Source of the DNA: a virus
Direction: 5' to 3' (one strand)
DNA: 64,000 nt
IMG/VR virus record: IMGVR_UViG_3300012954_000010
Location: 1-64,000 of that record
Shown: positions 1,919-19,956 of the stretch, piece by piece
How the letters are laid out: each line of letters opens with the position of its first letter
How positions within the stretch are numbered: the first letter of the stretch is position 1
Notes under the pieces: model-generated
What the model was told of the DNA's origin: nothing
Database searches by the model: none
The model's input: the letters and a program-made list of their open reading frames with translations, nothing else
Translations under genes and position numbers: made by a program

Positions 1919-1968
1919 AATAGTGTCAGTATCAAACAGAATAATATAGAATTCTTTGAATTCGTAAG

Positions 1969-1975
1969 TATTTAT
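1969..1975 (-). promoter_or_regulatory. T4-type late promoter (ATAAATA) for the glycosyltransferase-carbamoyltransferase pair
   Basis: Motif lies just downstream of a terminator and about 50 nt upstream of ATG 1918. Confidence 0.6.
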
Positions 1976-1979
1976 GCAA

Positions 1980-2006
1980 TAAAAAAGAGGCGGTTTCCCG
2001 CCCCTC
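1980..2006 (-). terminator. Intrinsic terminator
   Basis: GAGGGGCGG-GAAA-CCGCCTC followed by a T run on the minus strand. Confidence 0.85.
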
Positions 2007-2036
2007 ATATTAACACATTATTGTGTATCTATCAAC

Positions 2037-2849
2037 TTATTCTTCGGTAGCTTCTGCTTTATCTACTGATGCCTTAGGAAGACCTGTAGAAGAAGCGACT
2101 AGTTCATCATAGTCGGTAACTCTATAGTCATAACCATCAATCCAGTCAGTTCTAGGATCATCTGGGAATGGAATCATGTGAGGACCCCAACCATCTTCTG
2201 GAGAGAACTTGGTGTATAGACCTTCAAGTTCAGCGATGAATGCTTGAAGTTTTGCTCTCATCTCATCAGTCAAGTTTCCGTTGCCACCGTTCTCAGTTGC
2301 TTCTGCGTCAAGATTTGCTTGAGCATCTGCAAGAAGACCGTCACGCGCTGCTTTGTGCTGCTCCATAGTGATCCAAGGCTTGAACCATGGAAGTGGAGTC
2401 ACAAACTTTTCAGTTGCTGGGTCGTACTCGATCTCATCAGCGGCATAGGTGTGATCAGGAGACTGTGGATTAGGACGCTCGTAGTATACAGTGTCATCTC
2501 CAGCGAGTTTATACTCTTTCTGAGGATAACCACCTGCTTTTCCAGTGTCCTTACCAAACAGGATTGATCCGATTACTGCTTCTGCGTCATCCGCAGTTTG
2601 CATGTCAATCAGAACTGCTCTCTGGTCTTGACCAGCGCGAACATTTGCCTGCTCAGTTTCTTCCGCAGTTGGTGTGCGGGTGAAAGGAATGCATGACTGA
2701 GATGGGTTCCATCTGTTAGTCTCGCGGCTAACAAAAACAAAGAGGAATCTAGGACCTTCGTAGGTCCAATCCGCTGTCAACCCGAGATTATCAGTCTGCG
2801 CCAGATACTCATCTGGGAGTTTGTATGTAAATGCTTTTGTGAATGCCAT
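2037..2849 (-). CDS. Hypothetical protein with a C-terminal tail-fibre assembly chaperone-like region
   Basis: RDGLLADAQ...LQAFIAELEGL...IPFPDDP resembles the R..LL...D...Y...LRDL...WP..P chaperone pattern. Has its own late promoter. Confidence 0.5.
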   Translation of the reverse strand: MAFTKAFTYKLPDEYLAQTDNLGLTADWTYEGPRFLFVFVSRETNRWNPSQSCIPFTRTPTAEETEQANVRAGQDQRAVLIDMQTADDAEAVIGSILFGKDTGKAGGYPQKEYKLAGDDTVYYERPNPQSPDHTYAADEIEYDPATEKFVTPLPWFKPWITMEQHKAARDGLLADAQANLDAEATENGGNGNLTDEMRAKLQAFIAELEGLYTKFSPEDGWGPHMIPFPDDPRTDWIDGYDYRVTDYDELVASSTGLPKASVDKAEATEE

Positions 2850-2886
2850 ATCTAATAAGGAAAGTGACTTTGACCTATGCTGAATG

Positions 2887-2894
2887 TATTTATA
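2887..2894 (-). promoter_or_regulatory. T4-type late promoter TATAAATA
   Basis: Exact consensus, intergenic. Confidence 0.8.
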
Positions 2895-2897
2895 TGA

Positions 2898-3788
2898 TTA
2901 CAAGTTCTCGTCGTACTTGTAACTGATGCGAACCATACCTGGGTTACCGTTCTGACCATGGCAGCAACCGCCACAAGTCCAACCAGAAGCACCACCGACG
3001 CCAGGTACATAGTTAGTTTCACTATGTCCACCGCCCCAGTTTAGCTGGTCTACCGCCCAATGCATTAGGCAATAACCACAACCACTGTTTTCGCATTGGT
3101 TACCAGGCAACCAACCGCCTTTACCGTTGACTAGACCGCCTGGGTAAGCAATCATCTGCTTGTTCCAGCAGTGATTGTTATAACACCACATGTATGTGTA
3201 TCCAGGGACTCCTCTAGAACCGCCGTCTGCTCCATAGTAGCAAGCACAGCATCCATAAGGGCAGTTAGATAGACTGATGTAATTAGAGGTGCAGCAGCAG
3301 AGGAAGCAGCAAGAGCATCCTGCTGGACCACCATCTGCACAGAAGTTTGACAAACCAGGACCAGAGATCGATGTATAGTTTCCAGGATCTCCACACTGCC
3401 ATCCCATTCTACCACATCCAGGTTCTCCAACCTCGATTTGGTAAGCGCAACCAGCATACTGACTACCGACTAGACGCTTGTATGCATATGCACCAGATCC
3501 AGCGGGAACGCCTCGTGAACAGCAGCAGGAAGAACCGCCGCCGCCACCGCCGCCCCAGAGTTCAAAGATGATGTCACAGACACCATTAGGAACGCACCAG
3601 TTAGGGTACTGCATGTAGTAGTAATTTGTACTATACTCCGAACATGTAGCACCACAATATGCAGTGATATATTGGACGCAGTATCCTTCGGATGGAAGTC
3701 TTGCGATCTTCGTTGTATCGTCAGGTGCCGCTGATGCTTTCAGGGTTTCCTCTGATACAATACCGAGTAAGTCTCTAAGGTTTGACAT
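2898..3788 (-). CDS. Cys/Gly-rich virion (fibre-tip/adhesin-like) protein, paralogue 3
   Basis: 30 Cys in 296 aa by hand count; WCVP..ELWGGGGGG..CCC, GLSNFCADGG and C-terminal GMVRISY. Confidence 0.7.
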   Translation of the reverse strand: MSNLRDLLGIVSEETLKASAAPDDTTKIARLPSEGYCVQYITAYCGATCSEYSTNYYYMQYPNWCVPNGVCDIIFELWGGGGGGGSSCCCSRGVPAGSGAYAYKRLVGSQYAGCAYQIEVGEPGCGRMGWQCGDPGNYTSISGPGLSNFCADGGPAGCSCCFLCCCTSNYISLSNCPYGCCACYYGADGGSRGVPGYTYMWCYNNHCWNKQMIAYPGGLVNGKGGWLPGNQCENSGCGYCLMHWAVDQLNWGGGHSETNYVPGVGGASGWTCGGCCHGQNGNPGMVRISYKYDENL

Positions 3789-3814
3789 TGTGCTTTACTA
3801 TCCTCCAGTATTTA

Positions 3815-4768
3815 TCAGTTGTAGAAGAAACAGGAACATGCTTGGTTGCCGTCAGATCTACGGTCAGAACCGTGAATCCAGCAAGAGCAATATGTGATTT
3901 TGATCATTCCAGATGCACCACCTCTACCGTAGCAGCAACCGCCACCACAAGAAGTTGCAGAAGGACCACCCTTACCAGGGATACCTGATCTACCACCACA
4001 GTTGACATTGAATGCGTATGGTGTAGTACCACGGCACATCATGTATTCATGGTGACATGCTTCACCAGAATAGTTAACAGTCTGATAAGTTGGACCGTTA
4101 GCAACTAGACCGTAAGGAATTGCGAATCCTGCCTTTGCCCAGCAGTTACTAGAGGAGTTGGAGGTTCTAAACCAGCTAGGTTTGCCGCCTGCCATAAAGT
4201 CTCCACCGTATGCACAAGCACAGCAGTTATGTAGACTCCATCCACCACAACCATCAAAGGAAACTTTATCCTTACATCTAAACTCATTGCTCCAGAATGC
4301 ATAGCAGCAAGTCTTACCAGGAAGACCACCGTCTGCACAAAGGTTACTTAAGTTACAACCTTGGACCCATGTCTTACAACCTGTGATACCACAGCAGCAG
4401 CGTGAGCAGCATGTAGGAGGCGCTGCACAGAGTGAATAACACCAACCACCTTGTACTAGTGGATACTCTAGAGTCTTTCTTACATAAGATCCAGCACCAC
4501 CAGGGAAACCTTGCTGACAGCAGCAACCGCCACCACCAGATCCGCCACCACCCCATAACTCGAAAGTTACTTGGGTAGTACCACAAGGAACGCACCAGTG
4601 CTGCAAGCAGTAGTTCCAATAGCTGTTATCACAGTTACCTTCACCACAATAACCACGGAAAAGGAATACTCTTCCTTCGTTATTCATGTCGAGAGCACCG
4701 ACTTCACCAATGGTGTTGTCCAATGTACTTGCGTACTCTCGACCAATTAAACTTCTAAGATTTGCCAT
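3815..4768 (-). CDS. Cys/Gly-rich virion protein, paralogue 2
   Basis: About 36 Cys in 317 aa; same motif order; N-terminus MANLRSLIG. Confidence 0.7.
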   Translation of the reverse strand: MANLRSLIGREYASTLDNTIGEVGALDMNNEGRVFLFRGYCGEGNCDNSYWNYCLQHWCVPCGTTQVTFELWGGGGSGGGGCCCQQGFPGGAGSYVRKTLEYPLVQGGWCYSLCAAPPTCCSRCCCGITGCKTWVQGCNLSNLCADGGLPGKTCCYAFWSNEFRCKDKVSFDGCGGWSLHNCCACAYGGDFMAGGKPSWFRTSNSSSNCWAKAGFAIPYGLVANGPTYQTVNYSGEACHHEYMMCRGTTPYAFNVNCGGRSGIPGKGGPSATSCGGGCCYGRGGASGMIKITYCSCWIHGSDRRSDGNQACSCFFYN

Positions 4769-4780
4769 TACTCCCCGTGA

Positions 4781-5707
4781 TTAAGATTTGCAGAAAAGTG
4801 TGACTCTAATGAGTCCGTGAGCACCCTCAGAAGAACAGCAGCAACCGCCACCGTATACCTGAGCAGAAACACCACCAGAACCAGGAGGACCGTTTCTATG
4901 GCAGGAACTGGAGAAACCACCATTATTACCAGTCAACCATAATGTAGCTCTTCTACCACAGGAGTGCATCTCTGGACGACGAAGGACATGGTGAATACCA
5001 TATCTAGCACCGAACATAGGAGCAACTGGGTGGTAGTCTTTCTTATGACACCAGTTACCACAACCTGGGTTACAATCATAATGAATATAGGAATCTAGGT
5101 TACCCCAGAAGAACTTACCTTTAGCTTCACACCCTCTATAGACTTCACCATTATTAGCAGGATAGTGATCAGTCTGCCATCTGTTACATGCAGGACCGAT
5201 TTCGTTCTTCCTTGTTCTACAAGAGAAGTAAGAATTAACCCAGTGACAGCAGTTAAATCCGTGACATCCACCACAAGCACAGAAGTCAGATAATCCAGGA
5301 CCCTGGACATAGGACTTACAACCGTCGAAACCACCTCTAGATGGGTGACGACATGTACCAGATGCTACGCAAATATCGTAGCAGCAACCATCCAATTGAG
5401 ACACGCCCATATCTTCAGCACACAGTGTGCAAGACATATACTGTCCCGAGTGTCCAGACCATGCGATAGAGCAGCAGCATGTACCTGAGCCGCCACCGCC
5501 GCCACCCCAAAGTTCCCATTTGATGCGACAAATGCATTCATTTGGGACGCACCACCTGTAACGGTTGTAGTCATAGTCATGACTGCTACCGTAGGACCAA
5601 CAGTGGTTTCCTCTGAATAGATACTGATGTGCTCCTGGACCCAAATACGTCTGGACGGGTAAGTTATCCAGTGATGGCACATCTAGAAGATCTCTTAAAC
5701 TTGACAT
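4781..5707 (-). CDS. Cys/Gly-rich virion protein, paralogue 1
   Basis: About 31 Cys in 308 aa; same motif order; N-terminus MSSLRDLLD. Confidence 0.7.
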   Translation of the reverse strand: MSSLRDLLDVPSLDNLPVQTYLGPGAHQYLFRGNHCWSYGSSHDYDYNRYRWCVPNECICRIKWELWGGGGGGSGTCCCSIAWSGHSGQYMSCTLCAEDMGVSQLDGCCYDICVASGTCRHPSRGGFDGCKSYVQGPGLSDFCACGGCHGFNCCHWVNSYFSCRTRKNEIGPACNRWQTDHYPANNGEVYRGCEAKGKFFWGNLDSYIHYDCNPGCGNWCHKKDYHPVAPMFGARYGIHHVLRRPEMHSCGRRATLWLTGNNGGFSSSCHRNGPPGSGGVSAQVYGGGCCCSSEGAHGLIRVTLFCKS

Positions 5708-5731
5708 TCTAGTGTTCCCTCTGTTAGTTTA

Positions 5732-6055
5732 TCAGTTAGATAGAATCGACCAACCAAAAGCAGAACCTGTGTAGATTAGCTCTAGTGATGCATTCTTGAT
5801 ATCAAAGTCAAGGTCCTCTGCTAAGTTAGCGATCTTATGACCGTTGCGTAAGACATTTACTTTATTATTTCCGCAGTTTCCAGCAGCGTCAATTAGATTG
5901 ATTCTGTCACCTACTCTTGGGTTAGCTGGCAAAGTCAAATCAAAAACTGCTGAAGTTGTGTCAAGTAGCAGGATCTGTCCTGCTAAGACATTATGATTAG
6001 AGGTCACTGCGAGAGTCTCTCTAGTATCAGATGGTGGTGTTAATACTCGTCCCAT
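5732..6055 (-). CDS. Small fibre adaptor, T4 gp34/gp9-10-like beta-sandwich domain
   Basis: LDTTSAVFDLTLPANPRVGDRINLID...NKVNVLRNG...LIYTG..GW pattern; SD GGAG. Confidence 0.6.
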   Translation of the reverse strand: MGRVLTPPSDTRETLAVTSNHNVLAGQILLLDTTSAVFDLTLPANPRVGDRINLIDAAGNCGNNKVNVLRNGHKIANLAEDLDFDIKNASLELIYTGSAFGWSILSN

Positions 6056-6093
6056 GGGTCTTTATACTCCTATGTGTTTATTTATTGAAAAAA

Positions 6094-6414
6094 TTAAGCG
6101 GTTTCTTCAACACCGTAAACGGAGATACTGACGCCAGTTGTATCAGCAAATGCTACAACTTTTTTGGTTGCATCAAGTGCAATACCAGTTCTCTCCAAAA
6201 CGCCGTAACCACCAATCTCAGCGTTGTACTCAATGTACTCGCCAGGTACGGGTGTGTCGGTTGCAGCTAAAGCAATACGAACGCTAACAGGTGTAGCATT
6301 TGTGTTGACCATATTAAGGTTGAGGTACGAAACTGTAGAACCAGGAACGGTATATACAGTTGTTAATGTTGCCGCAGCTAGGGAAGATTGAGTCCCCAGA
6401 ATTCCAGAAGCCAT
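6094..6414 (-). CDS. Small virion structural protein
   Basis: TLTTVYTVP beta-rich protein; SD AAGGAG; late promoter at 6459-6466. Confidence 0.6.
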   Translation of the reverse strand: MASGILGTQSSLAAATLTTVYTVPGSTVSYLNLNMVNTNATPVSVRIALAATDTPVPGEYIEYNAEIGGYGVLERTGIALDATKKVVAFADTTGVSISVYGVEETA

Positions 6415-9400: not shown

Positions 9401-10255
9401 ACCAGATTGATATAGGATATCACCAGCAGTGGTTAGAACATTCGCCTGAGCACCTTGTGCTAGGGAATTCCAATATTGACCAGTGGTGTCAGTTTCTGGT
9501 GTATTACCTTGAGATTGAGCAACACAAATATAGGAGTTGCTGTTTCTAGAAACTGCGTCACCTGGGAAGTAAACTGTGCTTGTATCCCAAGTTCCTCTCC
9601 ATGTGAAACCACCGACGATGAAGTCCCAATCAGTCTGACCAGGAGCAGCAGGAGAAGAGTTTACATTAGTAGTTTTTGCAACATACGAGTTACCACCTAG
9701 AAGGACAACATCACCAGGCTTGTATGTTGTAGTTGCATCCCAGTTACCAACAACCTTGAAACCAGTTGTTAGGATTTCCCAAGTGGTGCCAAGACCATTG
9801 TTGGGTTGAATACCTGTGGATGTCGATAGTGCGATGTATGAGTAACCACCGTAAGTTACAATATCACCTTTTTGATATTCAGTGCTTGCGTCCCAAGTAT
9901 CTTCAAACTTTAGACCATCAAGATAATCAGCAAACTTTGCAGGATCAAAGTTAGCTCCAGCGGTGTGAGGAACAGTACATCTATAGAGAACATTACCATA
10001 CTTGGCAATATCGTTCAATCTATAGAAAGTGGCTGTTGCCCAGTCACCAGTATTGTAGATACCCTCTGTGTGCAACGACCAGTTGCCTACATCAGTGGAG
10101 TACCATTGTGCCGCCGTTGAGACCGAAGTATGGTTCGCGGTTGCAACATAAGTGTTAGCACCAAATTTAACAATGTCGTCGATGACATAGGCAGTATCAG
10201 CCGCCCAATCACCGCGCCAGTTAAATTTTAGTCTTCCAAGTCTAAAATCTGCCAT
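6476..10255 (-). CDS. Tail fibre/tailspike-like protein with N-terminal CBM5/12-like repeats and a pectin-lyase-like beta-helix entry
   Basis: Five W....Y..GD.V...G..Y-type repeats; YYVTQEGSDSNTG...AFGTLRHA...IYVKAGTYNE. Confidence 0.7.
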   Translation of the reverse strand: MADFRLGRLKFNWRGDWAADTAYVIDDIVKFGANTYVATANHTSVSTAAQWYSTDVGNWSLHTEGIYNTGDWATATFYRLNDIAKYGNVLYRCTVPHTAGANFDPAKFADYLDGLKFEDTWDASTEYQKGDIVTYGGYSYIALSTSTGIQPNNGLGTTWEILTTGFKVVGNWDATTTYKPGDVVLLGGNSYVAKTTNVNSSPAAPGQTDWDFIVGGFTWRGTWDTSTVYFPGDAVSRNSNSYICVAQSQGNTPETDTTGQYWNSLAQGAQANVLTTAGDILYQSGAGPARLPIGNDGTVLTVDADTGFPAWKKNQVTQKVYYVTQEGSDSNTGENITEAFGTLRHAVDSVSGPATIYVKAGTYNEILPMRVPEEVSIVGDNLRTTRITPRQGEPSTTIELDLAQVPDAQYKVLGSTVNSGDGSKTGEVIDVKDGGSTIVLKIQGFVGHRNGDAYNLLKANTSFLVKETLAKAAAGGVSLSYPPGSDQTQFENDLTLIIQDIYSNLGYGGNDIIYDRVDTQLTNNYWNGGEAEVISILGYMNQIAYDIINNVPVTVTGSHGITQVIDNTITSDPNGCAAIEAAIAALIQVVTDGLTAGNLSGVTRTANSSLWTTSDTYEAGATDIAINGVSIVNNEHATMFLLGNKTMLKDLVMDGMSGFVPSTSDPKDMNTATVKGVYVRLDPNSPITKSPYVSQCSSFGGTATGAIIDGDVHAKWDGTATPSNKSIVFDSWTQIYEEGGVGFWVTNNGASEIVSCFTYYAHISYTATRGGRIRSLAGNSSWGVYAIVSSGFNQNEATLQGQIDGLQLQYDVATITAGPGGDTIWSNDERIVGLTSGAIGEIVSVQAGVYKILYRPLKGTFVQGEVISGQTTNVSANLDSNADAVGGQNGFVLVLTGLTEAPKPGGSIEFITGPGGLGEEPFTFVVSNSSYNAPLGYGTLTVARGLLGSAAATHDGLESITRYQYGDPTTLSAAINNPTETTIFVSSISGFSIGAFLVVEDEMMSITSFPTATSMEVVRGVEGTNAIAHNSGLTVRSIEIKVVGQTDTRRDLDSSQQDIRVTDASGFNLNDFIKIDNEFMQVSNAQTDTTGTVLVVLAAEKPTRTYDGQGYKIRYSYSQVRLTGHDFLNIGSGTKTQVNWPGEPLVPPAPGNEVTEDFPGRVFFVSTDQDGNFTVGRYFRVNQATGSTTLNASSFDLSGLSSLRLGSIGAQLGESITEFSSDVTLSANSNQKVPTQRAVKTYVDSTRTTKGYVFWAGSI

Positions 10256-10267
10256 TTGTGTTTTCCT

Positions 10268-10678
10268 TTACTTAGGTCCTTCGGTGGTATAATCGTATGC
10301 TTCGTTAAAGCGGATAACAAAATATCCATCATCATCGATGTAGTAGGTAATTTTCCTACTATCAAATCTATACTGTTGATATTTATCCTGTGGATCATTG
10401 ACATATGATTTGTCTTCCGTAGTTTCTTCTACGTAATCATACAATCCAGTCGCAATATCTAGGTAAGGAGTTCCATCAAGTCTGTGGAAATCAATAACCT
10501 CATCATCAATACTTCTGATTTTGGTGTAGCGAAGCATACCATCTTCATCTCTGCGAAGAGCGTGAATAGTAAAGTCATTACCCAAATCATAGCTATTACC
10601 AGAGAAACCTCCACCACCGCCAGTGCCTCCACTGCCGCCGCCAGAAGTTCTGTAACTATCGCTGATATACATCGTCAT
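10268..10678 (-). CDS. Hypothetical virion-associated protein
   Basis: Start set at ATG 10678, which makes an ATGA overlap with the upstream stop; Gly linker near the N-terminus. Confidence 0.6.
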   Translation of the reverse strand: MTMYISDSYRTSGGGSGGTGGGGGFSGNSYDLGNDFTIHALRRDEDGMLRYTKIRSIDDEVIDFHRLDGTPYLDIATGLYDYVEETTEDKSYVNDPQDKYQQYRFDSRKITYYIDDDGYFVIRFNEAYDYTTEGPK

Positions 10679-11136
10679 GATACGATTACCCTCCAGTAAC
10701 TGCCTTCCCATATTAACTGAACACTTGCGCCTTTCAGATCAAAAACTAGAGGAGAATCAACTACTCCAAAAGTATTTTGAAACTGTCTGCCGATAGGGTC
10801 CACAATAGTAATATTATTTATATCCCATGTGAACTTTACGTCGATAAACTCTATAACATCACCTGCTTTTGGGACAAGTTGATTATTATAGAGAGGGAGC
10901 GTAAGTGTTAGGGGACCGCTTGAGGAGTCTACAAGATATCTGAGTGAGGTTCCGAGAACTTGACTAGAATTAATTAATTCCCATCTAGCTCTAAAAACAT
11001 CAAAACCGCCAGTCGTACTACCGTCATGAATGACGGCCATATTCTTATCGGTATCAATTGTAAGCTCACCTTCAGCACCAGTAAACAGTGCGTGTTCGGC
11101 TGTAGTACCCCTTCTAAATTGAACCTGAGTTGTCAT
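10675..11136 (-). CDS. Fibre adaptor: Mtd_N-like N-terminus plus gp34-like domain
   Basis: QVQFRRGT...FTGAEGELTIDTDK...IHDG; C-terminal half resembles 5732-6055. Confidence 0.7.
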   Translation of the reverse strand: MTTQVQFRRGTTAEHALFTGAEGELTIDTDKNMAVIHDGSTTGGFDVFRARWELINSSQVLGTSLRYLVDSSSGPLTLTLPLYNNQLVPKAGDVIEFIDVKFTWDINNITIVDPIGRQFQNTFGVVDSPLVFDLKGASVQLIWEGSYWRVIVS

Positions 11137-11159
11137 CAGTGTTTTTTAGATATCATTTG

Positions 11160-11167
11160 TATTTATA
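11160..11167 (-). promoter_or_regulatory. T4-type late promoter TATAAATA
   Basis: Exact consensus upstream of ATG 11136. Confidence 0.8.
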
Positions 11168-11170
11168 GGA

Positions 11171-14100
11171 TTAGATAATCCATCCATAAGATCTTGGAGG
11201 TGTTACCTGGACAAACTTAATTCTCGATTCACCAAATACAATTGCGTCGGTGCTACCTGTGTAGAATTGGAATGGAGCAACATACTTAGTAGAAATATCG
11301 ACTTCGATATTTGTATGACCGAAGTATCTGATAATTCTCTTGTATGTCGTGAGAACATTAACATCAATGTTCCCATCAGTAGTGAAGTAATTTCTGGTGA
11401 GTACAGGAACAACATCTTTGTTGAGTACCCTCGCAGTTCCGAATGTAGATACGACACGAGTAAAGCTGTGTTGAGTATCTCCAACAATCGTAACTTGACC
11501 AGTAGTGATCCATGCACCTCTGCTGAATCTTTCAACTGCGGAACCAGAGATCTCAAGATTGATATCAGATGTAACAGTTCTCGTGAATCTCTGGCGAGCA
11601 GCACCAACAAAGTCGTAGATTGCTCTCGCAGAAACAGCGATTGTTCTAGACTCAGTTGCACTGTCGAATCCGAATAGATTTCCAGATCCAATGAATCTTC
11701 TAGTAGCGACAACCTTAGCATCGCCACTGAATGCAATGTCACCTTCAACAGTGATTCTATTTGTTGTAGACTCAGCAGCACCATTAACTGCAAACAGATT
11801 ACCAAATCCAGTGTAATCAATTGCTCTTGCAATGTCAGCGATACCAGAAATATCAAGTGCGCCTGTCGTGCTGTGTGCAAATGTACGACGCTCGATGCTG
11901 GTAACGAAGTTGAATAGAATACCACCGCCCGTCTCGACTGCGGATGTTCTTTCTGTAGCAAGACCGTTGAATTTGAATAGTCCTTCTGCTGGTGGTAGGA
12001 CAACAGTAGATTCTGCAGCACCGTTGACTGCGAATAGAGAACCATCTCCAATGTAAGATCTTGTAGATCTGATAAATCCAACACCAGTGAAATCGAAGAG
12101 TGCTTCTTTCTCGTCTGGGTTGAATGTGACAGATTCTGCTGCACCACCAAGACCAAATAGTTGACCGTCGCCAATGTAAATCTTGGTAAGAGAATTTGTA
12201 GATACACCAGATGTGAATACTGTACCAGTACCAATATTGTTTGGTGTAAATCTCTCGAATACATCTCCAGTGAGGTCGAGAAGTGCTCCTTCTTCTGGTG
12301 GATTGAAGGTAACTTTCTCTGCGATTCTCTGACCAGAGAAGGAGAACAGTAGTTGTTTTTCTTCTGGATTGAATGTGACAGATTCTGCTGCACCAGAGAA
12401 TTTCTTGAGTGAACCAGTACCAATGTAGATCTTGGTGAGACTTGTTTCTGTAGAAACAAATAGATTGACAGCACCAGAACCAATCCAGTTTGGAATGTAC
12501 TTGATGCTTGCTTCGCCGCGTACAATAGAATCTGCAAATACAGTTTCTGCGAATGTTGCTTTGAGTACAGCTGCTTCTGGACGGAATACAATATCTGACT
12601 GGAACTCTGGTAGTTTGAGAGTAATACTCTCAGCAGCACCACCAAAGTGACCAATAAAGACATCAGCTTCGTATGCACGAGCTCTGGTTGTTCCGCCAAC
12701 ACCTGTGATATCGACGAATACTGTTGGTTGCTCTGCAAATGTGAGGATTGGTTCTGATACTTCTCCAGAGAACAGGATGGTTCCACCCTGACTGACTTCT
12801 CTGTAACCAGCACGAAGACCTGCTTTGTCTGGACGGAATGCAATGTCTACCTGGAATGCAGGTAGTTTTCTGGTAATTGCTTCGTTGGTAAATCCAACTG
12901 TGAAGATAGAACCTTCGACAGAGTAAGCACGAGCTCTTGGAGTTTCTGCAACTCCAAATACTTCGACTTGTACTTCTGGTTGCTCTGCAAATGTAAGTAG
13001 TTCTGGTGCAGTTGTTCCAGAAACAAATAGATTTCCGAACCCAATATTGCCGCCAAATGTGCGTCTTTGAGCAACAGCACCCTTGAGTTCCAGATCTGCC
13101 TGGAATGCAGGGATTCTGATTGTGATTGCTTCCGCACTTTGACCGATACTGAATAGAGTACCTTCGCCAAGGTGAACATCGACGATTCTGTAAGATGCTG
13201 CTCCAAATACAGATACTGTACCAAATGGTTGCTCTGCAAATGTGAGGATTTCTGGTGCAGTTGTTCCAGATAGTTTGATGTTTGCAGTGAAGGATTCTGC
13301 ACGAGCAACTCGTACATCTGCTGCACCAACTGGAGAGAATAGTGCAGTCTTCTCTTCTGGATTTGCAGTGAAGGACTCTGCTGCTCCACTGAGTGCGAAG
13401 ATGCGACCTTCGCCAAAGTGAGACAGAGTAATAATTGGTACAACAGATTCGTTGAATACACGAAGATCTGCTTGACCGACATAGTTGTCTGTCTGTTTCT
13501 CGACTGCGATACCAGATAGTTTGGTGTGTGCAGTGAAGGATTCGACAATTGTGGATCTGATTCCAGCGGTTCCCTTGAGTTCCAGATCTGCCTGGAACGC
13601 TGGAATATCGATTGTAATTGCTTCGGAACTTGCTCCGATAGAGAATAGTAGACCAGAACCATTCCAATTTGGTGCAAATCTGAATTTCGCTCCACCTCTG
13701 ATTTCGACATCGACTTGTCTGAGAGTGTCGGTTGCTGCTCTCTCGTCTGCTGTACCAAAAACCCTGAGATCGACATGACCAGTGTATCCGAGAGCAAATG
13801 CCTCGTCTGCTGTGCCAGTAAACTTGTAAGTGAATGTCTCTGCTGGTGGTGTTGCTCCAACAGACTCGACTGCTCCACCAAATCCAAATAGTCTTCCAGA
13901 ACCAATGTATACTGGTGCAAGTCTGGTAGTGGTAGATACAAGAGTGAATAGAGATCCAGAACCAATGTGCAACAGACTGAAGTTTGTCTTGACTTGTCTG
14001 AAGTCGCTGGTAAGATTGGAGATTCTTCCGAATGGGTATTCGGATACTTTGCTGAGTAGAGAAGCAGGGTAGGAAGTAAATCCGTAGTCTTCCCTGACAG

Positions 14101-17100
14101 TTCTTTCGTTGTTTTCGCTTGTGATAAATCCACAATCGACACTGCTTGTAACAACAGAACCAATAGTAGGATTGATGGAGAATGTATTTTGAACTGTTGC
14201 AACAACACCTGCTCCAGGAGATCCAATCTGAATGATTGAAGTTGGAGCACTTCCAGTAAGAACTTGACTGGTTGCAATGTTGGTAATTTGACCAGAAGCA
14301 GGAAGACCCTGATAGTCTCTCTTCTGGTAGAAGTTGATAGAAGAATCGTTGTAGTGGTAGGTCCTTCTTTCTGCGCTGCCACTGACTGCAAACAGACTTC
14401 CTTCTGTCTGATAACCAAATGTTCTGAGGACTGGTTCTGCAGTACCAAAAATTTCTGCGCGAGCAGTACCATTCCAGTTTGGTACGAACGATTCGCCTGC
14501 GTCTCCAAAGAAGGAGAAGAGCATCTGCTTCTCGTCTGGATTGAAGCTGACGCTTTCGACAAGACCGCCAAGACCAAATAGTTGACCTTCGCCTTCGTAT
14601 GCAAATGTTCTGCGCTCGTCTTTTCCAACAAACGAAGGAATTCTTCCTTCTCCAGTAAATACCTTGGAAAGACTGCTGTGTGCAGAACCATTGACTTCGA
14701 TCTGGATCTCTGCAACCCACTGAGGATTGACTCTTGCGCGACCATCGACAAATATCTTGAGTCCACCAGAACCAATATGTCTGAGAGCAAAATTGGTACG
14801 AGTTGCACTGTTGAGTAGGAACTTGCCAAACGGATAGTTCGTAACAGTCTGGGTGATGAATCCCCAATCGATTGTACCAGAGTGTCCAGTTGTAATAACT
14901 CCATGATCTAGAGTTAGTGTTGGAACTGCATTTGCAGTTAGGATAATCTGATACTGAGGATCTACTACCGCAGTGACACCATTCTCGATTCTGATAACTG
15001 GATCCGAAGAAGTTCCAGAGAGAATAGTTGGAGTTGTAATACTTCCAAGCGATGCTGTAGATGGAAGGAATCCGAAGTTCTCGTAATCGAAGAACCCAAT
15101 AGAAGAATCGTTGTAGCTGTAGGTACGACGCTCGTGATAAGCATCTCCCTCGAATACAAACAGATTGCTGACTTCGTTCTGAGCAAATGTTCTGAGAACA
15201 GAAGATGGTGTACCATCGACTTTGATGGATCCCTCGACAATCCAGTTGGGAGAGAAGGATACATGAGCAGCACCAACAAACTCGAATAGACCATCCTTGA
15301 GTTCGCTGAAGGTTGCAGATTCTGCAGCACCATTGATTGCAAAGATCTGACCTTCGCCTTGGTATGCAAATGCTCTGCTGTCTGTTGTAGATACAAAGTT
15401 GAACAGGTCACCGCGTCCAACATAAGTCTTAGTGAGACTGTACTCCTCACCACCGAAGACTTCGATTTGAATCTCAGCAAACCATTGAGGATTGACTCTT
15501 GCTCTACCCTCACCACTAAGTATGACTTCACCGTCACCAATGTGTCTGAGGGAGAAGTTAGTGTGAGCAGCACCGTTGTAAAGGAACTTACCGAATGGAT
15601 AGTTGGTAACTGTCTGACTGATGAAGCCCCAGTCGATGTTTCCAGAGTAACCTTCGGTAATAGTACCGTGATCGTATACCGTAGTTGGAACGGTATTTGC
15701 ATTCAAGACGAGCCTGAATGTTGGATTGACCGTTACAGTATTCTCGATTCTTACAACTGGATCTGTAGACTCTCCTGATATAGTCTGAGGACCAGAAATA
15801 GTCTGTATAGATGCACTGGATGGAATGAATCCAAAGTTCTCGTATCTGAAGAACGAGATAGAAGAATCGTTGTAATCGTAAGTGCGTCTTTCGTGGTATG
15901 CATCACCAGTAAAGACGAATAGATTACCAACTTCATCCTGAGCAAATGTTCTCTTGATGTCAGATACAGCACCTGTTACATCAATGACACCTTCAGAGAT
16001 CCAGTTAGGTGCGAAGCTGACATGTGCAGCATTGCTGAATTCAATACCACCAGATCCAATATAATCAGTAGCAACTCTCTCTTCTGTAGAGACGAAGTTG
16101 AATAGGTCTCCAGAACCTGCGTATGCATATGCTCTGGTTTCTTCGCCGCCACCAATACTGAATAGGTTACCAGAACCAGGATGTAGAAGACTGAAGTTAG
16201 TTTTGGCAACACCACTAACTTTGTTGATGATGAATCCTTTCCAGATTGGATTGGTTTTAGCAATCGCAACACCAAAGACAGAGATGTCACCCTGAACAAC
16301 ATAATTAGGAACAAAGTTGATGAGTGTCTCAGACTTGAGTCTGCTGACACCGAATGGGAATTTAGTTCCAGTAACATTAATGAATCCCCAATCCTCATTG
16401 GTAGTCTTACCAATAGAAATAGGAGCGTATTCAATTGTATTTTGTGGAGTACCAATAGGCAGTGCAACTTGGTACTGTGGTGAAACACTCGCCGTTACAC
16501 CAGGATCAACCAGAACTATCGACTCAGAACTGACTCCCGATAGTGTCTGGTTGCTTGTAATATGTTGGTATGTCTGGAGTGGAACAGTTCCAAAATCCAG
16601 ATACCCGAATGGTACAACAGAAGATGTGTTGTACGAATAAGTTCTTCTTTCGTCCTTACTGTTGAGTGCTGGTAGAGTTCCAGAAGCTTCGTATCCGAAG
16701 GTTCTAAGTATAGGTGCAGAACCATCAACTTCGACAGTACCACTACCGACCCAGTTAGGCTGGAATGCAACATCTGCATTTCCACTAACTTCAATAACTC
16801 CTTGCGTTTCGTATGCTCTGCTACGAAGGGAGAATCCATTACCAATATTGAATAGATTTCCACTTCCAAGTTCTTGCTTGGAGAATGCAATATCCGTAAG
16901 CGACTGGATGCCAAAGAGACCATCGGTCTTGATGCTTGGCACCCAGTGCGTAACGGTGTTACCAGTAACATGCAGTGTACCCGTAACGATATACGGAGCG
17001 ACCAGACGATAGTAAGTATCGCCTCTTTCAAATACAGTACCTGTACCAACCCATGCATGTACAACTGTCCAAGTTGTATTACTGACAGGTCTAAGTGTTC

Positions 17101-17359
17101 CGAATGGGAAGTTAGTGTCTGTGTAGATGATTCTTCCCCAATCATCCACTGCAACTGCTTCGGTGTCTCTAACGGACCCACCATCAACAAAAGCAGTTGG
17201 TGTTAATGCTAGTGAATTTAAACCGTAGTCAATCTCAATGAACGGTTCAATAGACGAAGGATTCCATGAATATGAATGTCTCTCACCACTAAAAATACGC
17301 AGCGCAAAACTAGACCCAGAAGGTCCATCTATACCAGTTGTATAGACATGCGTTGCCAT
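11171..17359 (-). CDS. 2062-aa periodic beta-strand-rich virion protein (candidate fibre scaffold/ruler)
   Basis: Long ORF with SD GGAGGG; recurring G.G.LF...GAAES and TFAEQP units with about 83-aa and about 253-aa periods. Confidence 0.8.
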   Translation of the reverse strand: MATHVYTTGIDGPSGSSFALRIFSGERHSYSWNPSSIEPFIEIDYGLNSLALTPTAFVDGGSVRDTEAVAVDDWGRIIYTDTNFPFGTLRPVSNTTWTVVHAWVGTGTVFERGDTYYRLVAPYIVTGTLHVTGNTVTHWVPSIKTDGLFGIQSLTDIAFSKQELGSGNLFNIGNGFSLRSRAYETQGVIEVSGNADVAFQPNWVGSGTVEVDGSAPILRTFGYEASGTLPALNSKDERRTYSYNTSSVVPFGYLDFGTVPLQTYQHITSNQTLSGVSSESIVLVDPGVTASVSPQYQVALPIGTPQNTIEYAPISIGKTTNEDWGFINVTGTKFPFGVSRLKSETLINFVPNYVVQGDISVFGVAIAKTNPIWKGFIINKVSGVAKTNFSLLHPGSGNLFSIGGGEETRAYAYAGSGDLFNFVSTEERVATDYIGSGGIEFSNAAHVSFAPNWISEGVIDVTGAVSDIKRTFAQDEVGNLFVFTGDAYHERRTYDYNDSSISFFRYENFGFIPSSASIQTISGPQTISGESTDPVVRIENTVTVNPTFRLVLNANTVPTTVYDHGTITEGYSGNIDWGFISQTVTNYPFGKFLYNGAAHTNFSLRHIGDGEVILSGEGRARVNPQWFAEIQIEVFGGEEYSLTKTYVGRGDLFNFVSTTDSRAFAYQGEGQIFAINGAAESATFSELKDGLFEFVGAAHVSFSPNWIVEGSIKVDGTPSSVLRTFAQNEVSNLFVFEGDAYHERRTYSYNDSSIGFFDYENFGFLPSTASLGSITTPTILSGTSSDPVIRIENGVTAVVDPQYQIILTANAVPTLTLDHGVITTGHSGTIDWGFITQTVTNYPFGKFLLNSATRTNFALRHIGSGGLKIFVDGRARVNPQWVAEIQIEVNGSAHSSLSKVFTGEGRIPSFVGKDERRTFAYEGEGQLFGLGGLVESVSFNPDEKQMLFSFFGDAGESFVPNWNGTARAEIFGTAEPVLRTFGYQTEGSLFAVSGSAERRTYHYNDSSINFYQKRDYQGLPASGQITNIATSQVLTGSAPTSIIQIGSPGAGVVATVQNTFSINPTIGSVVTSSVDCGFITSENNERTVREDYGFTSYPASLLSKVSEYPFGRISNLTSDFRQVKTNFSLLHIGSGSLFTLVSTTTRLAPVYIGSGRLFGFGGAVESVGATPPAETFTYKFTGTADEAFALGYTGHVDLRVFGTADERAATDTLRQVDVEIRGGAKFRFAPNWNGSGLLFSIGASSEAITIDIPAFQADLELKGTAGIRSTIVESFTAHTKLSGIAVEKQTDNYVGQADLRVFNESVVPIITLSHFGEGRIFALSGAAESFTANPEEKTALFSPVGAADVRVARAESFTANIKLSGTTAPEILTFAEQPFGTVSVFGAASYRIVDVHLGEGTLFSIGQSAEAITIRIPAFQADLELKGAVAQRRTFGGNIGFGNLFVSGTTAPELLTFAEQPEVQVEVFGVAETPRARAYSVEGSIFTVGFTNEAITRKLPAFQVDIAFRPDKAGLRAGYREVSQGGTILFSGEVSEPILTFAEQPTVFVDITGVGGTTRARAYEADVFIGHFGGAAESITLKLPEFQSDIVFRPEAAVLKATFAETVFADSIVRGEASIKYIPNWIGSGAVNLFVSTETSLTKIYIGTGSLKKFSGAAESVTFNPEEKQLLFSFSGQRIAEKVTFNPPEEGALLDLTGDVFERFTPNNIGTGTVFTSGVSTNSLTKIYIGDGQLFGLGGAAESVTFNPDEKEALFDFTGVGFIRSTRSYIGDGSLFAVNGAAESTVVLPPAEGLFKFNGLATERTSAVETGGGILFNFVTSIERRTFAHSTTGALDISGIADIARAIDYTGFGNLFAVNGAAESTTNRITVEGDIAFSGDAKVVATRRFIGSGNLFGFDSATESRTIAVSARAIYDFVGAARQRFTRTVTSDINLEISGSAVERFSRGAWITTGQVTIVGDTQHSFTRVVSTFGTARVLNKDVVPVLTRNYFTTDGNIDVNVLTTYKRIIRYFGHTNIEVDISTKYVAPFQFYTGSTDAIVFGESRIKFVQVTPPRSYGWII
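12120..13597. repeat. Exact 25-27 bp direct repeats spaced about 249 bp (or twice that) apart inside the 2062-aa gene
   Basis: ttgaatgtgacagattctgctgcacca at 12120 and 12369; tggttgctctgcaaatgtgaggatt at 12725 and 13226 (18-bp partial at 12977); cccttgagttccagatctgcctggaa at 13080 and 13572. Confidence 0.85.
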
Positions 17360-17384
17360 AGATTCAGATTCCCTCCACTAAAAC

Positions 17385-17414
17385 AAAAAAGGGGATCCAA
17401 CAATGAATCCCCTC
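17385..17414 (-). terminator. Intrinsic terminator between the 462-aa and 2062-aa genes
   Basis: GAGGGGATTCA-TTGT-TGGATCCCCTT followed by TTTT. Confidence 0.85.
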
Positions 17415-17444
17415 ACACATAATAATGAATTCAATTTGAACCAA

Positions 17445-18833
17445 TCAGTCGAGGCTGACATTCAGTGTGACTTTGATTTGGTCACCCGCGTTTTGAATCG
17501 CGTATGGACCATTTGTGAATCTCTCAGCGAAGAAGATCGCATCATAGAGAGTCGCTGCACCAGTACCATCAATTGCTTTGGTAGTGGTGAAAGTATTTGC
17601 ATCAGGTACAGTGTGAACAATGTATGTACCAGCAGTAGTTGTGCTGTTACCAGTACCCTGATCGATGTAGACTGCATCACCAACAACTAGACCATGACCA
17701 GTTGCAGTAACTTTGCTGAAGTCAAAGAGAACAGTGTCGTTACCGTTAGATGCCTGAATGTTTTCAATCAGTAGGTTGTTCAAGTAAACTGTTACAGTTC
17801 CGTCAGTGTCTTCTGTCTCGAAGTCAATACCAGTGATGATGGTGTTAGCATCAATACCGTTTGGAGTAGAACTCTGAGAAACTCTCATGCCGAGTGCTAG
17901 GTCTTCAGCAACATTCGCCTTGAATGTAGCATCACCAGAAACTGCACCAGCGTTAGGCTTGTCTAGGTATACAGTAGTACCAACGATACCAGCAACGCGA
18001 GCGTTAAGAGCGATGTTAGTTCCAGTTACGCGCTGGTTAACAACAACGCCAGTAGTGGAAGCAACGCTGATCTCGAACTCACCAGCAGTACCAGTAGCAG
18101 CAGTAACTGCAGATACAGCAGCAAGAGTTAGATAGTTGTTACCAATCGTTCCTCTGACACCAGACTTAGAAATCTGAGTACCAGCAGCAATAGTTGCTGC
18201 GTCTGCCACACCGTGAATAGTGGTAGGCATGTTGTTGGCACGGGACAGATAGTAACCGTAGATGTTACCTGCAGGACCATCAAAGGTGAAAGTCTGCTCA
18301 GGATAAGAAGCAGTTGTTCTACCCTTACCGAAAGCAAGAGGTTGTGCAGTGAAGTTACCGCTGTTTTTGACACTCAAGTTGAGGGTTGTGCCGTCGATAT
18401 CGACAACATATGCACCAGTTCCGACAGAACCACCAGTGACATAATCGCCCTTCTTAATACCAGTATTGCTAGCAACAGTAATCAGGTATTCGCCAGAGAC
18501 ACCATCACCATTGACGGTAGTAACTGCAGATGGTTCAGTTTCAATGGTCCAACGGTTACCATTCAAGAGGATACCATACTGCTGAACATAGTCCTGGTCA
18601 GTTCTGTTGTTAATGACCTGAGGATATCCAGTAGTAGGACCAGAACCGTAACCGATCGTGTTGTTATCGGTGTATGGTTCAAAATATCTAGTCTGAGAGG
18701 GAGTGTCACTCTCTGCAGGATATGTGTCTGTGCTAAACAGTTTTAGAATTAGATTCCTAGGAATGTTCTGCGAATAGTTCAGCAGATTTCTTAGAGAATC
18801 AATTTCGCCGTTGTCGGTTACTAAGAGTGCCAT
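17445..18833 (-). CDS. Virion structural protein (candidate major fibre/filament subunit)
   Basis: LILKLF...TP...ASYPEQTFTF...IYGYY and AERFTNGPY..QNAGDQIKVTL flank inserted small beta domains; SD GAGG; own late promoters. Confidence 0.65.
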   Translation of the reverse strand: MALLVTDNGEIDSLRNLLNYSQNIPRNLILKLFSTDTYPAESDTPSQTRYFEPYTDNNTIGYGSGPTTGYPQVINNRTDQDYVQQYGILLNGNRWTIETEPSAVTTVNGDGVSGEYLITVASNTGIKKGDYVTGGSVGTGAYVVDIDGTTLNLSVKNSGNFTAQPLAFGKGRTTASYPEQTFTFDGPAGNIYGYYLSRANNMPTTIHGVADAATIAAGTQISKSGVRGTIGNNYLTLAAVSAVTAATGTAGEFEISVASTTGVVVNQRVTGTNIALNARVAGIVGTTVYLDKPNAGAVSGDATFKANVAEDLALGMRVSQSSTPNGIDANTIITGIDFETEDTDGTVTVYLNNLLIENIQASNGNDTVLFDFSKVTATGHGLVVGDAVYIDQGTGNSTTTAGTYIVHTVPDANTFTTTKAIDGTGAATLYDAIFFAERFTNGPYAIQNAGDQIKVTLNVSLD

Positions 18834-18870
18834 GTGTGTCCTCTGTCGATTACGTTGCTATCTGTAAGAT

Positions 18871-18894
18871 TATTTATACCACTAATTATTTATA
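18871..18894 (-). promoter_or_regulatory. Tandem late promoters (TATAAATA twice)
   Basis: Exact motifs at 18871-18878 and 18887-18894. Confidence 0.75.
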
Positions 18895-19621
18895 ATTTGA
18901 TCCTAAGTGATACAGTGACTTTAGTTATGTCGTGAACATAGTTTACGACAAACCTTAGGATGTCTCCAGCATCGATAGTGGTATTCCATGTGGAGAGGTT
19001 GTCGTCCTTTTTCTTGTCCTCCTTTAATTGATTTATAACACCTAGAGTAGGAAGTTCTGTGCCACAGATAGATGTGAAATTAGGAAAGTCAGCAAATGAT
19101 GCTTTCAAAATGTCCATCTCAATATTGCCAGGAGTATCTGAAAAAATAGTCCATGACTCAATTGTGCCTGTGACATCTAGGGTCATATCTCCTTTTGGAC
19201 CAGTCGCCATAGAGAATGATCCAGAGTCAATTACGAAGTTAAGTGTTCTGGTTAAATCTGCGGTAGTTACAAGTGCAACACCAGAGAATTTATTACCAGC
19301 GCATGGGGCGGATGAAAAAACAATTTGATTGTTAGAAACGATATAATCAACCGCAGGTTTTAGAACAACATCATTAATAGAAATAATAAGTTGTTGTTCA
19401 TTGATTGGGTAATATGCCTCACCATTAACAGAGAGGTTAAATGTATCAACAGCAGGACTACTCACACAATCAAAGGATGCTGAAATGTCATCCAGGATTA
19501 GATTGGTGAACTGTGTTGACTTTGTTGGAATTTGGTAGTTAACATCTAAGTTGAACTGAGGATTTTGTCTCAGAGCAACACGATGTGTATTTGAACCAAC
19601 TCTTACATTATACTCTGCCAT
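18890..19621 (-). CDS. Virion structural protein
   Basis: LDDIS..FD....TFNL...LIISINDV.LKP..DY domain, also seen in gp7. Confidence 0.65.
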   Translation of the reverse strand: MAEYNVRVGSNTHRVALRQNPQFNLDVNYQIPTKSTQFTNLILDDISASFDCVSSPAVDTFNLSVNGEAYYPINEQQLIISINDVVLKPAVDYIVSNNQIVFSSAPCAGNKFSGVALVTTADLTRTLNFVIDSGSFSMATGPKGDMTLDVTGTIESWTIFSDTPGNIEMDILKASFADFPNFTSICGTELPTLGVINQLKEDKKKDDNLSTWNTTIDAGDILRFVVNYVHDITKVTVSLRIKL

Positions 19622-19956
19622 CAGGAGGATACTCCAGGATTGACTTCTACAATGCCCTCAATGACTCTCGTCTTATATCCTTGGGGTGATTCTAGAAGAA
19701 TGTCATAGACATATCTTCTACGGTCAAGCACTCCCGTTTCAGCGCCAGTCATAGAGATACCAATTTCACCTGATGTTCTATTCACAAACACTAGGGGAAC
19801 TTGGATGCTAGATGTAGCACTATAACTCTTCTTGAAATGAGCTTCTCCAGTATAACCCACCATGTTTAATGGAGTGCCATCCTTATTTGTAATGAAGAAA
19901 GTCACATCAAAGTTGGCATGACGATCAACTACAATATTTACAGGTATCGCTGCCAT
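19621..19956 (-). CDS. Small virion adaptor protein
   Basis: IVVDRHANF...PLNMVGYT...RRYVYDILL...RVIEG.VEV.PGV; ATAAATA at 19981-19987. Confidence 0.65.
   Translation of the reverse strand: MAAIPVNIVVDRHANFDVTFFITNKDGTPLNMVGYTGEAHFKKSYSATSSIQVPLVFVNRTSGEIGISMTGAETGVLDRRRYVYDILLESPQGYKTRVIEGIVEVNPGVSS

Follow-up and report, generated by a model that had tools for sequence, protein, structure and literature searches.

Why should a viral gene be free of stop triplets even in the two frames in which it does not encode its protein? The question is raised by a minus-strand gene of the window, the 64,000-nt stretch of marine cyanophage DNA analysed here (positions 1 to 64,000 of the IMG/VR record IMGVR_UViG_3300012954_000010). 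This gene (11171..17359), hereafter the void gene, encodes a repeat-built structural protein of 2062 aa that falls into phrog_11522 and has no Pfam match. A tally of all TAA, TAG, and TGA triplets of its sense (minus) strand showed three stretches, or voids, in which none of the three sense frames holds a stop: a core void of 2060 nt (12850..14909), a second of 776 nt (11856..12631), and a third of 442 nt (14968..15409), all minus strand. They lie in a zone covering codons 650 to 1835 (11856..15409, minus strand), and they are the only voids of at least 200 nt on either strand of the 98.5-kb contig.

The original prediction for this locus had described the core stretch as stop-free in all sense frames and had named eight stops between 11856 and 15407; these are exactly the ones present. 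Six are in the +1 frame (14965, 14962, 14938, 14914, 14908, and 12847), five of them crowded into 60 nt just 5′ of the core void (14908..14967, minus strand), and two are in the −1 frame (12663 and 12630). On the minus strand the −1 frame stays open over 12666..15407 (gene nt 1949-4694), for which we counted 915 codons where about 914 had been given. The +1 frame holds a single stop (12847-12849) over 11208..14907 (minus strand, gene nt 2449-6154), as had been claimed for 14907-11206; its open runs measure 687 and 548 codons, and the single-stop stretch reaches to 32 nt short of the void gene's own stop codon. Over the whole 6189-nt gene, off-frame stops number 17 (+1) and 82 (−1). Minus-strand stop triplets occur at about 50 per kb elsewhere, compared with 3, 0, and 5 in the three kilobases of the void zone. 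The plus strand across the void carries stops at normal density, in line with the earlier remark that the opposite strand is rich in them. The G+C content is 0.44-0.46.

Off-Frame Stops Are Removed by Synonymous Codon Choice

Two null models were applied to the zone. In the first, synonymous codons were permuted within the zone with the protein and the zone's codon usage kept (2000 permutations); 32.8 ± 3.2 stops are then expected in the +1 frame and 84.3 ± 6.2 in the −1 frame, whereas 6 and 2 are observed, and no permutation gave a void longer than 380 nt. In the second, the protein was re-coded with the phage's codon usage conditioned on the preceding base, which keeps junction biases; the expectation becomes 44.6 (+1) and 111.7 (−1) stops, and the longest simulated void 222 nt. 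Taking both nulls, 117-156 off-frame stops are expected where 8 are observed, and no 2-kb void was simulated, so that the depletion goes beyond codon usage, as had been proposed. In the +1 frame it is gene-wide under the second null: the 5′ part has 10 stops where 25 are expected, and the 3′ part 1 where 9 are.

These data, together with the codon junctions, support context-dependent synonymous codon choice as the way in which the depletion is produced. Within the −1 void, T-ending codons stand before AA-, AG-, or GA-starting codons in 0 of 204 cases, compared with 309 of 710 (43.5%) for other codons (binomial ~1e-51). Over the zone, the T-ending fraction before GA-, AA-, and AG- codons is 0.02, 0.00, and 0.00, whereas in other genes it is 0.50, 0.36, and 0.40. 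Compared with 12 other genes in the window, only four junctions depart, namely T|GA, T|AA, T|AG, and T|TT; at T|GG, T|GC, T|GT, T|AC, and T|AT the zone is at background. Similarly, off-frame TAT, TAC, TGG, TGT, and TGC are unaffected or enriched, which agrees with the observation already made that these near words remain common. Other genes of the phage carry off-frame stops at expectation, with T|GA even enriched. The depletion is specific to the three stop triplets and to the void gene.

The internal repeats of the gene provide a further comparison. Where paired repeat copies share a residue pair, the stop-making codon is found outside the void and a synonym inside it (GCT-GAG/GCA-GAG, GGT-AAG/GGC-AAG, ACT-AAC/ACC-AAT, and GGT-AGA/GGT-CGC, outside/inside). 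The original prediction had used a 759-bp duplication in this way; its control holds in the main, with GCT-GAG/GCA-GAG recovered, but the exact pair GGT-GAT/GGA-GAT was not found.

T|TT is the one junction outside the stop set that is shunned. Across the gene family, the fraction of T-ending codons before TT-starting codons is 0.02-0.13, against 0.27 in other genes, and the avoidance covers the whole gene and not the voids alone; in-frame TTT is common in the void gene, where it accounts for 43 of the 100 Phe codons. Among established frameshift sites, U UUY lets tRNA-Phe slip by −1, and the +1 slip of prfB takes place at xUU U. As judged from the codon junctions, the gene-wide T|TT avoidance is consistent with the shunning of tRNA-Phe slip sites. 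Since T|TT is shunned out of frame only, decoding, rather than recognition of DNA or RNA, is indicated. Homopolymers and general slippery-site differences were rejected as causes because run statistics resemble those of other genes, with T|TT as the one exception. A shunning of in-frame internal starts was also rejected, Met, GTG, and TTG being rare in the neighbouring structural genes as well and distant orthologues having periodic Met residues, as was avoidance of alternative-frame starts or Shine-Dalgarno (SD) motifs, with ATG, GTG, and TTG at expectation and SD-like words mildly low.

The Voids Are Conserved and under Ongoing Selection

We assembled a family set of 58 open reading frames (ORFs) from IMG/VR and named phages (24-97% identity, 1453-2559 aa). 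Voids of about 0.5-2.2 kb are present in the 3′ half of 56 of them despite saturated synonymous divergence, a result that bears out the expectation of conserved voids in orthologues. The trait is kept at 24-42% identity; the orthologues of S-CAM1 (31% identity) and S-CAM3 (~27%), for example, have voids of 1.2-1.7 kb. In the large genes adjoining the family ORFs the longest void is about 135 nt. Throughout 1.07 Mb of family loci, all voids of at least 250 nt are within the void gene and on its sense strand, and none of at least 300 nt was found outside the void gene in ~2.7 Mb of cyanophage DNA. The void is always in the 3′ part of the gene, with limits that shift between lineages on the protein alignment. 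The long open run of the +1 frame terminates between −86 and +31 nt from the true stop codon in 19 of 30 orthologues. A tie to one repeat type was rejected, the same types being found inside and outside the void. The void-poor ORFs L029 (7998-14573) and L048 (7629-12083) represent natural "revertants", with L022/L057 and L045/L060 as void-bearing sisters.

Comparison with close relatives supports purifying selection on synonymous sites in the zone that is still ongoing. Between the window and the locus L003 (95% identity), 86 synonymous changes have occurred in the zone and none created a stop (P ~7e-6), where 12% of the possible synonymous transitions and 19% of the transversions would make one. 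The void is thus upheld by selection and is not a decaying relic. The number of synonymous differences per identical-residue codon is 0.086/0.072, 0.120/0.110, and 0.179/0.152 (void/non-void), and in nine pairs ranging from 95% to ~60% identity the synonymous divergence in voids is as high as outside. The other frames are therefore not constrained as proteins.

The Alternative Frames Do Not Resemble Coding Sequences

Over 1185 codons, the −1 frame offers as starts no ATG, one GTG, and three TTG, so that ribosomes could enter it only by frame loss (or through these four codons); the +1 frame contains 20 ATGs. The −1 peptide would consist of 9% Cys, 7% Trp, 13.5% Arg (mostly CGA/AGA/AGG/CGG), and 0% Met, and the +1 peptide of 20% Leu, which fits the earlier impression that these peptides are compositionally unnatural. 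No Pfam family was matched by the alternative-frame peptides, and blastp of 447 alternative-frame segments against the 58 frame-0 proteins gave no match at E<=1e-3. The idea that repeats are read in different frames was rejected, since no likeness joins these peptides to the frame-0 proteins. Every indel between close relatives is a multiple of 3, and no frameshifted variant was seen among strains (58 ORFs; indels of close relatives).

Sites for programmed frameshifting were equally scarce. The void gene has a single X_XXY_YYZ heptamer, T_TTA_AAT, at gene nt 137 and a long way from the voids, and no slippery heptamer was found at void starts in 7 orthologues. An Rfam scan of 10000-19000 gave nothing relevant. 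T_TTA_AAT itself (17220-17226 of the window, minus strand) is conserved in the window, L003, and L009; three +1 stops lie at most 20 nt past it, with no long alternative frame beyond. Programmed frameshifting to alternative C-termini, one of the causes first suggested, was not upheld, given the missing slippery sites, the unconstrained other frames, and the lack of an ATG in the −1 frame. Dual coding is likewise not indicated: the synonymous rate is undiminished, and the −1 frame has no ATG, no protein-like composition, and no homologues. With synonymous rates undiminished, peptides unnatural, and neither slippery heptamers nor frameshifted segments to be found, openness itself, and not the protein sequence of an alternative frame, appears to be selected, as the original prediction had supposed.

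The open frames also affect gene calling. Mechanical ORF listing gives alternative-frame "ORFs" of 685-1283 aa in the void gene and its orthologues (window 12663-14867 and 12847-14904, minus strand; L291 and L292). ORF callers of this kind report spurious overlapping "genes" of 700-1300 aa at the void, and automatic annotation could adopt them.

Gene and Locus Setting

The family to which the void gene product belongs, phrog_11522, has no annotated function. The protein consists of four super-repeats of about 253 aa each, followed by repeats of about 83 aa, and the internal repeats are only 60-75% identical at the DNA level. Its 2062 residues include two Met and one Cys, and the codons TTA, TTG, GTG, and ATA are used 0, 1, 0, and 1 times in the void zone; in distant orthologues a Met recurs about every 83 residues, marking the repeat period. 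Searches of Pfam, of PDB sequences, and of a protein atlas gave no relative of the void protein, and megablast of the gene against phages gave no match. AlphaFold models were unusable (predicted local distance difference test score 41, and 25 with a 32-row alignment).

By position, the void gene belongs to a tail-fibre module. It lies between a phrog_10467 gene and the gene for a 153-aa "tail protein" with an Mtd-type N-terminal domain (10675..11136, minus strand), beyond which a 1259-aa tail fibre (phrog_9851) is encoded; the gene order of the module is identical in S-CAM1, S-CAM3, S-SSM7, and Sf-FS3. Over residues 1-58, the 153-aa protein shares 58.6% identity with the N-terminal domain of Mtd of Bordetella phage BPP-1, and the likeness to Mtd is limited to that domain. 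Mtd of BPP-1 is a tropism protein diversified by a diversity-generating retroelement. Full-length homologues of the 153-aa protein were found in void-gene phages only; the Mtd-N domain also heads tail proteins of Vibrio, Pelagibacter, Pseudomonas, and T7-like cyanophages.

Directly 3′ of the void gene stop codon, TATAAATA (11160..11167, minus strand) matches the T4-type late-promoter consensus, a putative function read from the motif. With this putative promoter past the stop codon, the downstream gene need not be translationally coupled, and such coupling was rejected as the cause of the void because the downstream gene has its own motif. At the other end, a terminator-like hairpin with a T-run (17389..17414, minus strand) separates the void gene from an upstream gene of 462 aa, and a GGAGGG Shine-Dalgarno sequence stands 5′ of the ATG at 17359.

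Co-Distribution with a Phage tmRNA

A transfer-messenger RNA (tmRNA) was detected in the genome of the window, G000, at G000:C1:82879-83206 on the minus strand (locus L069 1476-1803; RF01851, 182.9 bits). ARAGORN describes it as a circularly permuted, two-piece tmRNA of the cyano type with the tag ANTSDVAANNIVAFSRQAAPVAA; it overlaps a tRNA-Thr by about 20 nt. RF01851 also scores above the cut-off in S-CAM1, S-CAM3, and two IMG/VR genomes (G001 and G002), and blastn of the phage collection found tmRNA in few further cyanophages, including S-SSM7 and Sf-FS3. The tmRNA is thereby present in 7/7 void-gene genomes counted as identified independently of it, six of which are complete or near-complete, the window's own record being 51% complete. 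In S-CAM1, S-CAM3, S-SSM7, Sf-FS3, and S-CBWM1 the tmRNA either has no annotation or is covered by a "hypothetical protein" call, and tag C-termini differ among homologous tmRNAs (…ELATA, …DELVTA, and …AVSCA).

S-SSM7 and Sf-FS3 were assigned by position. A collection-wide tblastn with the void protein gave no match in them, and a direct search gave one weak match, in Sf-FS3 (E 3.6e-4). Whole-genome scans of both revealed voids of 362-1196 nt, all in the gene directly upstream of the Mtd-N tail protein; these positional orthologues have the same shuffle signature, with adjacent fibre genes at expectation. Two more IMG/VR genomes, G009 and G010, have a void gene with weak or no similarity to the void protein, the tail protein, and the tmRNA through which they had been picked up. 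Conversely, the tmRNA-negative Syn9, S-PM2, S-SM1, S-RSM4, and P-SSM2 (~1 Mb) have no void gene and no void longer than 295 nt; the longest stop-free stretches of these five are in P-SSM2 (NC_006883.2, 24304-24598, minus strand, 295 nt, and 19670-19914, plus strand, 245 nt). The tmRNA search was negative in five more void-gene contigs, which are 27-35% complete fragments and hence uninformative.

Two phages, S-CBWM1 and G011, are tmRNA-positive with no void gene. In G011 (IMGVR_UViG_3300026257_000002, 68728-81683, minus strand; L293), ORFs of 2343 and 1882 aa with normal off-frame stop density adjoin a short Mtd-N-like ORF, an exception to the rule that tmRNA implies a void gene.

In trees built from two structural proteins, S-SSM7 and Sf-FS3 group with P-SSM2, and the group of the window, with S-CAM1 and S-CAM3, falls beside S-RSM4 and S-PM2, so that the void-gene carriers are not one clade. 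As the void gene and tmRNA loci are also 65-85 kb apart, the two were gained or lost jointly at least 2-3 times. This count relies on three independent contrasts only, and the trees may reflect module exchange and not genome history. A number of giant structural proteins in G000 (2705, 3485, and 4618 aa) match their S-RSM4 and S-PM2 counterparts along most of the chain, at 42-60% identity; with S-SSM7 and Sf-FS3, short parts only align, though the fibre-tip module is shared. That the module is common to these phages and the giant proteins are not indicates modular exchange of the void-gene module.

Weighing the Explanations

The explanation that we favour, still tentatively, is that the selective agent is termination, by release factors, of ribosomes that have left frame 0. 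It is suggested by an avoided set that equals the release-factor set, by the frame-specific slip-site signal, and by a −1 frame entered through frame loss. Purifying selection clears the three stop triplets from both alternative frames over the 3′ two-thirds of the gene, and a ribosome out of frame 0 in a void would thus not be freed by a release factor. Most probably this would serve the quality control of a long, repeat-built, fibre-like protein. A frameshift soon followed by an off-frame stop would yield stable chains that lack the C-terminal end but retain the N-terminal part, and these could interfere with assembly; of the causes listed in the original prediction, the avoidance of truncated products would fit best. 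Where such stops are missing, the chain would receive an extended, unnatural tail with much Cys, Trp, and Arg (−1) or Leu and Gln (+1), and the frameshifted ribosome would end near the normal end of the gene, or stall; the junk-tailed chain, unfit to assemble, would presumably be degraded. We infer both the agent (ribosomes and release factors) and the cost (truncated chains).

Several points speak against this explanation. Frequent frameshifting at the void gene and harm from truncated chains are suppositions. Junk-tailed and truncated chains would also have their N-terminal part in common, so that the lesser harm of the former is assumed. The −1 void of distant orthologues takes the form of modules of 0.5-0.95 kb with stop-rich breaks between them, and frameshifted ribosomes would therefore still terminate inside the gene there. 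L029 and L048 have mostly lost their voids (longest 264 and 313 nt), yet their ORFs are intact. Finally, length alone is insufficient, because the giant structural genes nearby (2705, 3485, and 4618 aa) are not depleted.

The co-distribution suggests that void and tmRNA could form one system, in which frame-lost ribosomes escape RF1/RF2 and stall in the junk frames, and the tmRNA rescues them and tags the chain for proteolysis. A tmRNA in G000 and in every complete or near-complete void-gene genome tested, five cyanomyoviruses that lack both, and joint gain or loss in carriers that are not one clade all argue for it, but the contrasts are three, the structural genes behind the trees may themselves move, S-CBWM1 and G011 have the tmRNA alone, and stalling in junk frames is an assumption. 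Moreover, tmRNA works at mRNA 3′ ends, whereas frameshifted ribosomes meet ordinary stops at the end of each void; we regard this coupling as unlikely. An unlinked, two-part quality control, in which the stop-free fibre gene and the tmRNA are gained and lost together across cyanomyovirus lineages, also seems unlikely. Tolerance of frameshift mutations in the DNA, which would leave indel mutants full-length and let paired, compensating indels make new segments in a rapidly evolving host-range protein, is rather doubtful. The wide variation in family length and repeat number (1453-2559 aa) and the place of the gene in a tropism module, adjoining the Mtd-N protein, speak for it, and the concept is published for PE_PGRS genes (PMC13328622). 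On the other side, no alternative-frame peptide of the 58 ORFs resembles a frame-0 family protein, close relatives differ by multiples of 3 only, and junk frames with 9% Cys and 7% Trp are unlikely to fold as beta repeats; evolvability is, in addition, a second-order benefit, yet single synonymous sites are under purifying selection at 95% identity.

Purposeful translation of the alternative frames, by an overlapping gene or by programmed +1 or −1 frameshifting with a need for length more than for sequence, appears improbable. It could draw on the long open frames (915 codons in −1, 687 + 548 in +1), on mechanical ORF calls of 1259-1283 aa that overlap orthologues, on a +1 frame that has 20 ATGs and usually co-terminates with the gene, and on the cluster of five +1 stops just 5′ of the core void. 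It conflicts with the undiminished synonymous rate in voids, the lack of Pfam matches, the unnatural composition, the −1 frame devoid of ATG, the absence of a conserved slippery heptamer, and void boundaries that shift between lineages. Avoidance at the level of the nucleic acid would require a nuclease, an RNA-binding protein, or a DNA enzyme that reads UAA/UAG/UGA (or template TTA/CTA/TCA), and we consider it quite improbable. Frame 0 is stop-free anyway, so that strand-wide motif avoidance would look the same in the triplet counts, but the avoided set is exactly the stop codons, with TGG, TGT, TAT, and TAC untouched, other genes of the same strand and late module are unpurged, and the accompanying T|TT avoidance is frame-specific. 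The stop-triplet-directed RNase that had been listed among the possible causes is unlikely for the same kind of reason, the other giant genes of the phage being unpurged. Chance, amino-acid composition, a genome-wide codon-pair bias, or the recent amplification of a stop-free repeat might come to mind for so repetitive a gene, but this is extremely improbable: both nulls reject it with the simulated voids given above, the repeats are too diverged in DNA and of the same types inside and outside the void, and orthologues at saturated synonymous divergence retain their voids.

Comparison with Known Systems

Literature searches gave no published description of such a void, in agreement with the original prediction, which had named no matching system. 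The closest likenesses are found in four settings. Phage tail genes are known for programmed ribosomal frameshifting, as in the −1 event of the lambda G/GT type and the +1 event of Listeria phage PSA. With these and with overprinted genes the void gene has in common that alternative frames of a tail-module gene stay open for long distances, within the gene or at its end; it differs in having no slippery site, no drop in synonymous rate, and no protein-like product, and in that both of its alternative frames are open together over kilobases. Phage tmRNA and trans-translation are likewise a device of translation quality control, and one that void-gene phages carry. However, tmRNA acts on non-stop mRNA ends and not on frameshifted ribosomes inside an ORF, and its link to the void gene is one of co-distribution. 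In the PE_PGRS genes of Mycobacterium, out-of-frame stops are depleted, which has been proposed as frameshift tolerance (PMC13328622). Both are repeat-rich surface or structural genes with few off-frame stops, in which translation continues past a frameshift. PE_PGRS genes, in contrast, are extremely GC-rich and Gly/Ala-rich, so that composition explains much of their depletion, while the void gene has a G+C content of ~45%. Its depletion survives synonymous and junction-conditioned nulls, shuffles that preserve protein and usage still expecting 117 stops, and no frameshifted variants were found.

The void gene is a natural system in which to study the cost of frameshift errors and premature termination in large assembling proteins, and it could show whether viruses recruit trans-translation against that cost. 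Synonymous recoding or codon optimisation of such genes could do harm in ways that current design rules miss. Off-frame stops are usually taken as neutral by-products or as mild "ambushes". Seligmann and Pollock reportedly introduced the ambush hypothesis of hidden, off-frame stop codons in 2004. This hypothesis predicts enrichment of off-frame stops as a way to end frameshifted translation early, and its genome-wide effects are weak and disputed (PMC2996987, PMC3700767, PMC5909447). Like it, the void gene points to selection on off-frame stops that is tied to ribosomal frameshift errors. The sign is opposite: off-frame stops lie far below codon-usage expectation, and the effect is very large, local, and gene-specific, a near-complete purge on the kilobase scale that has been kept through deep divergence at a measurable cost to preferred codon pairs.

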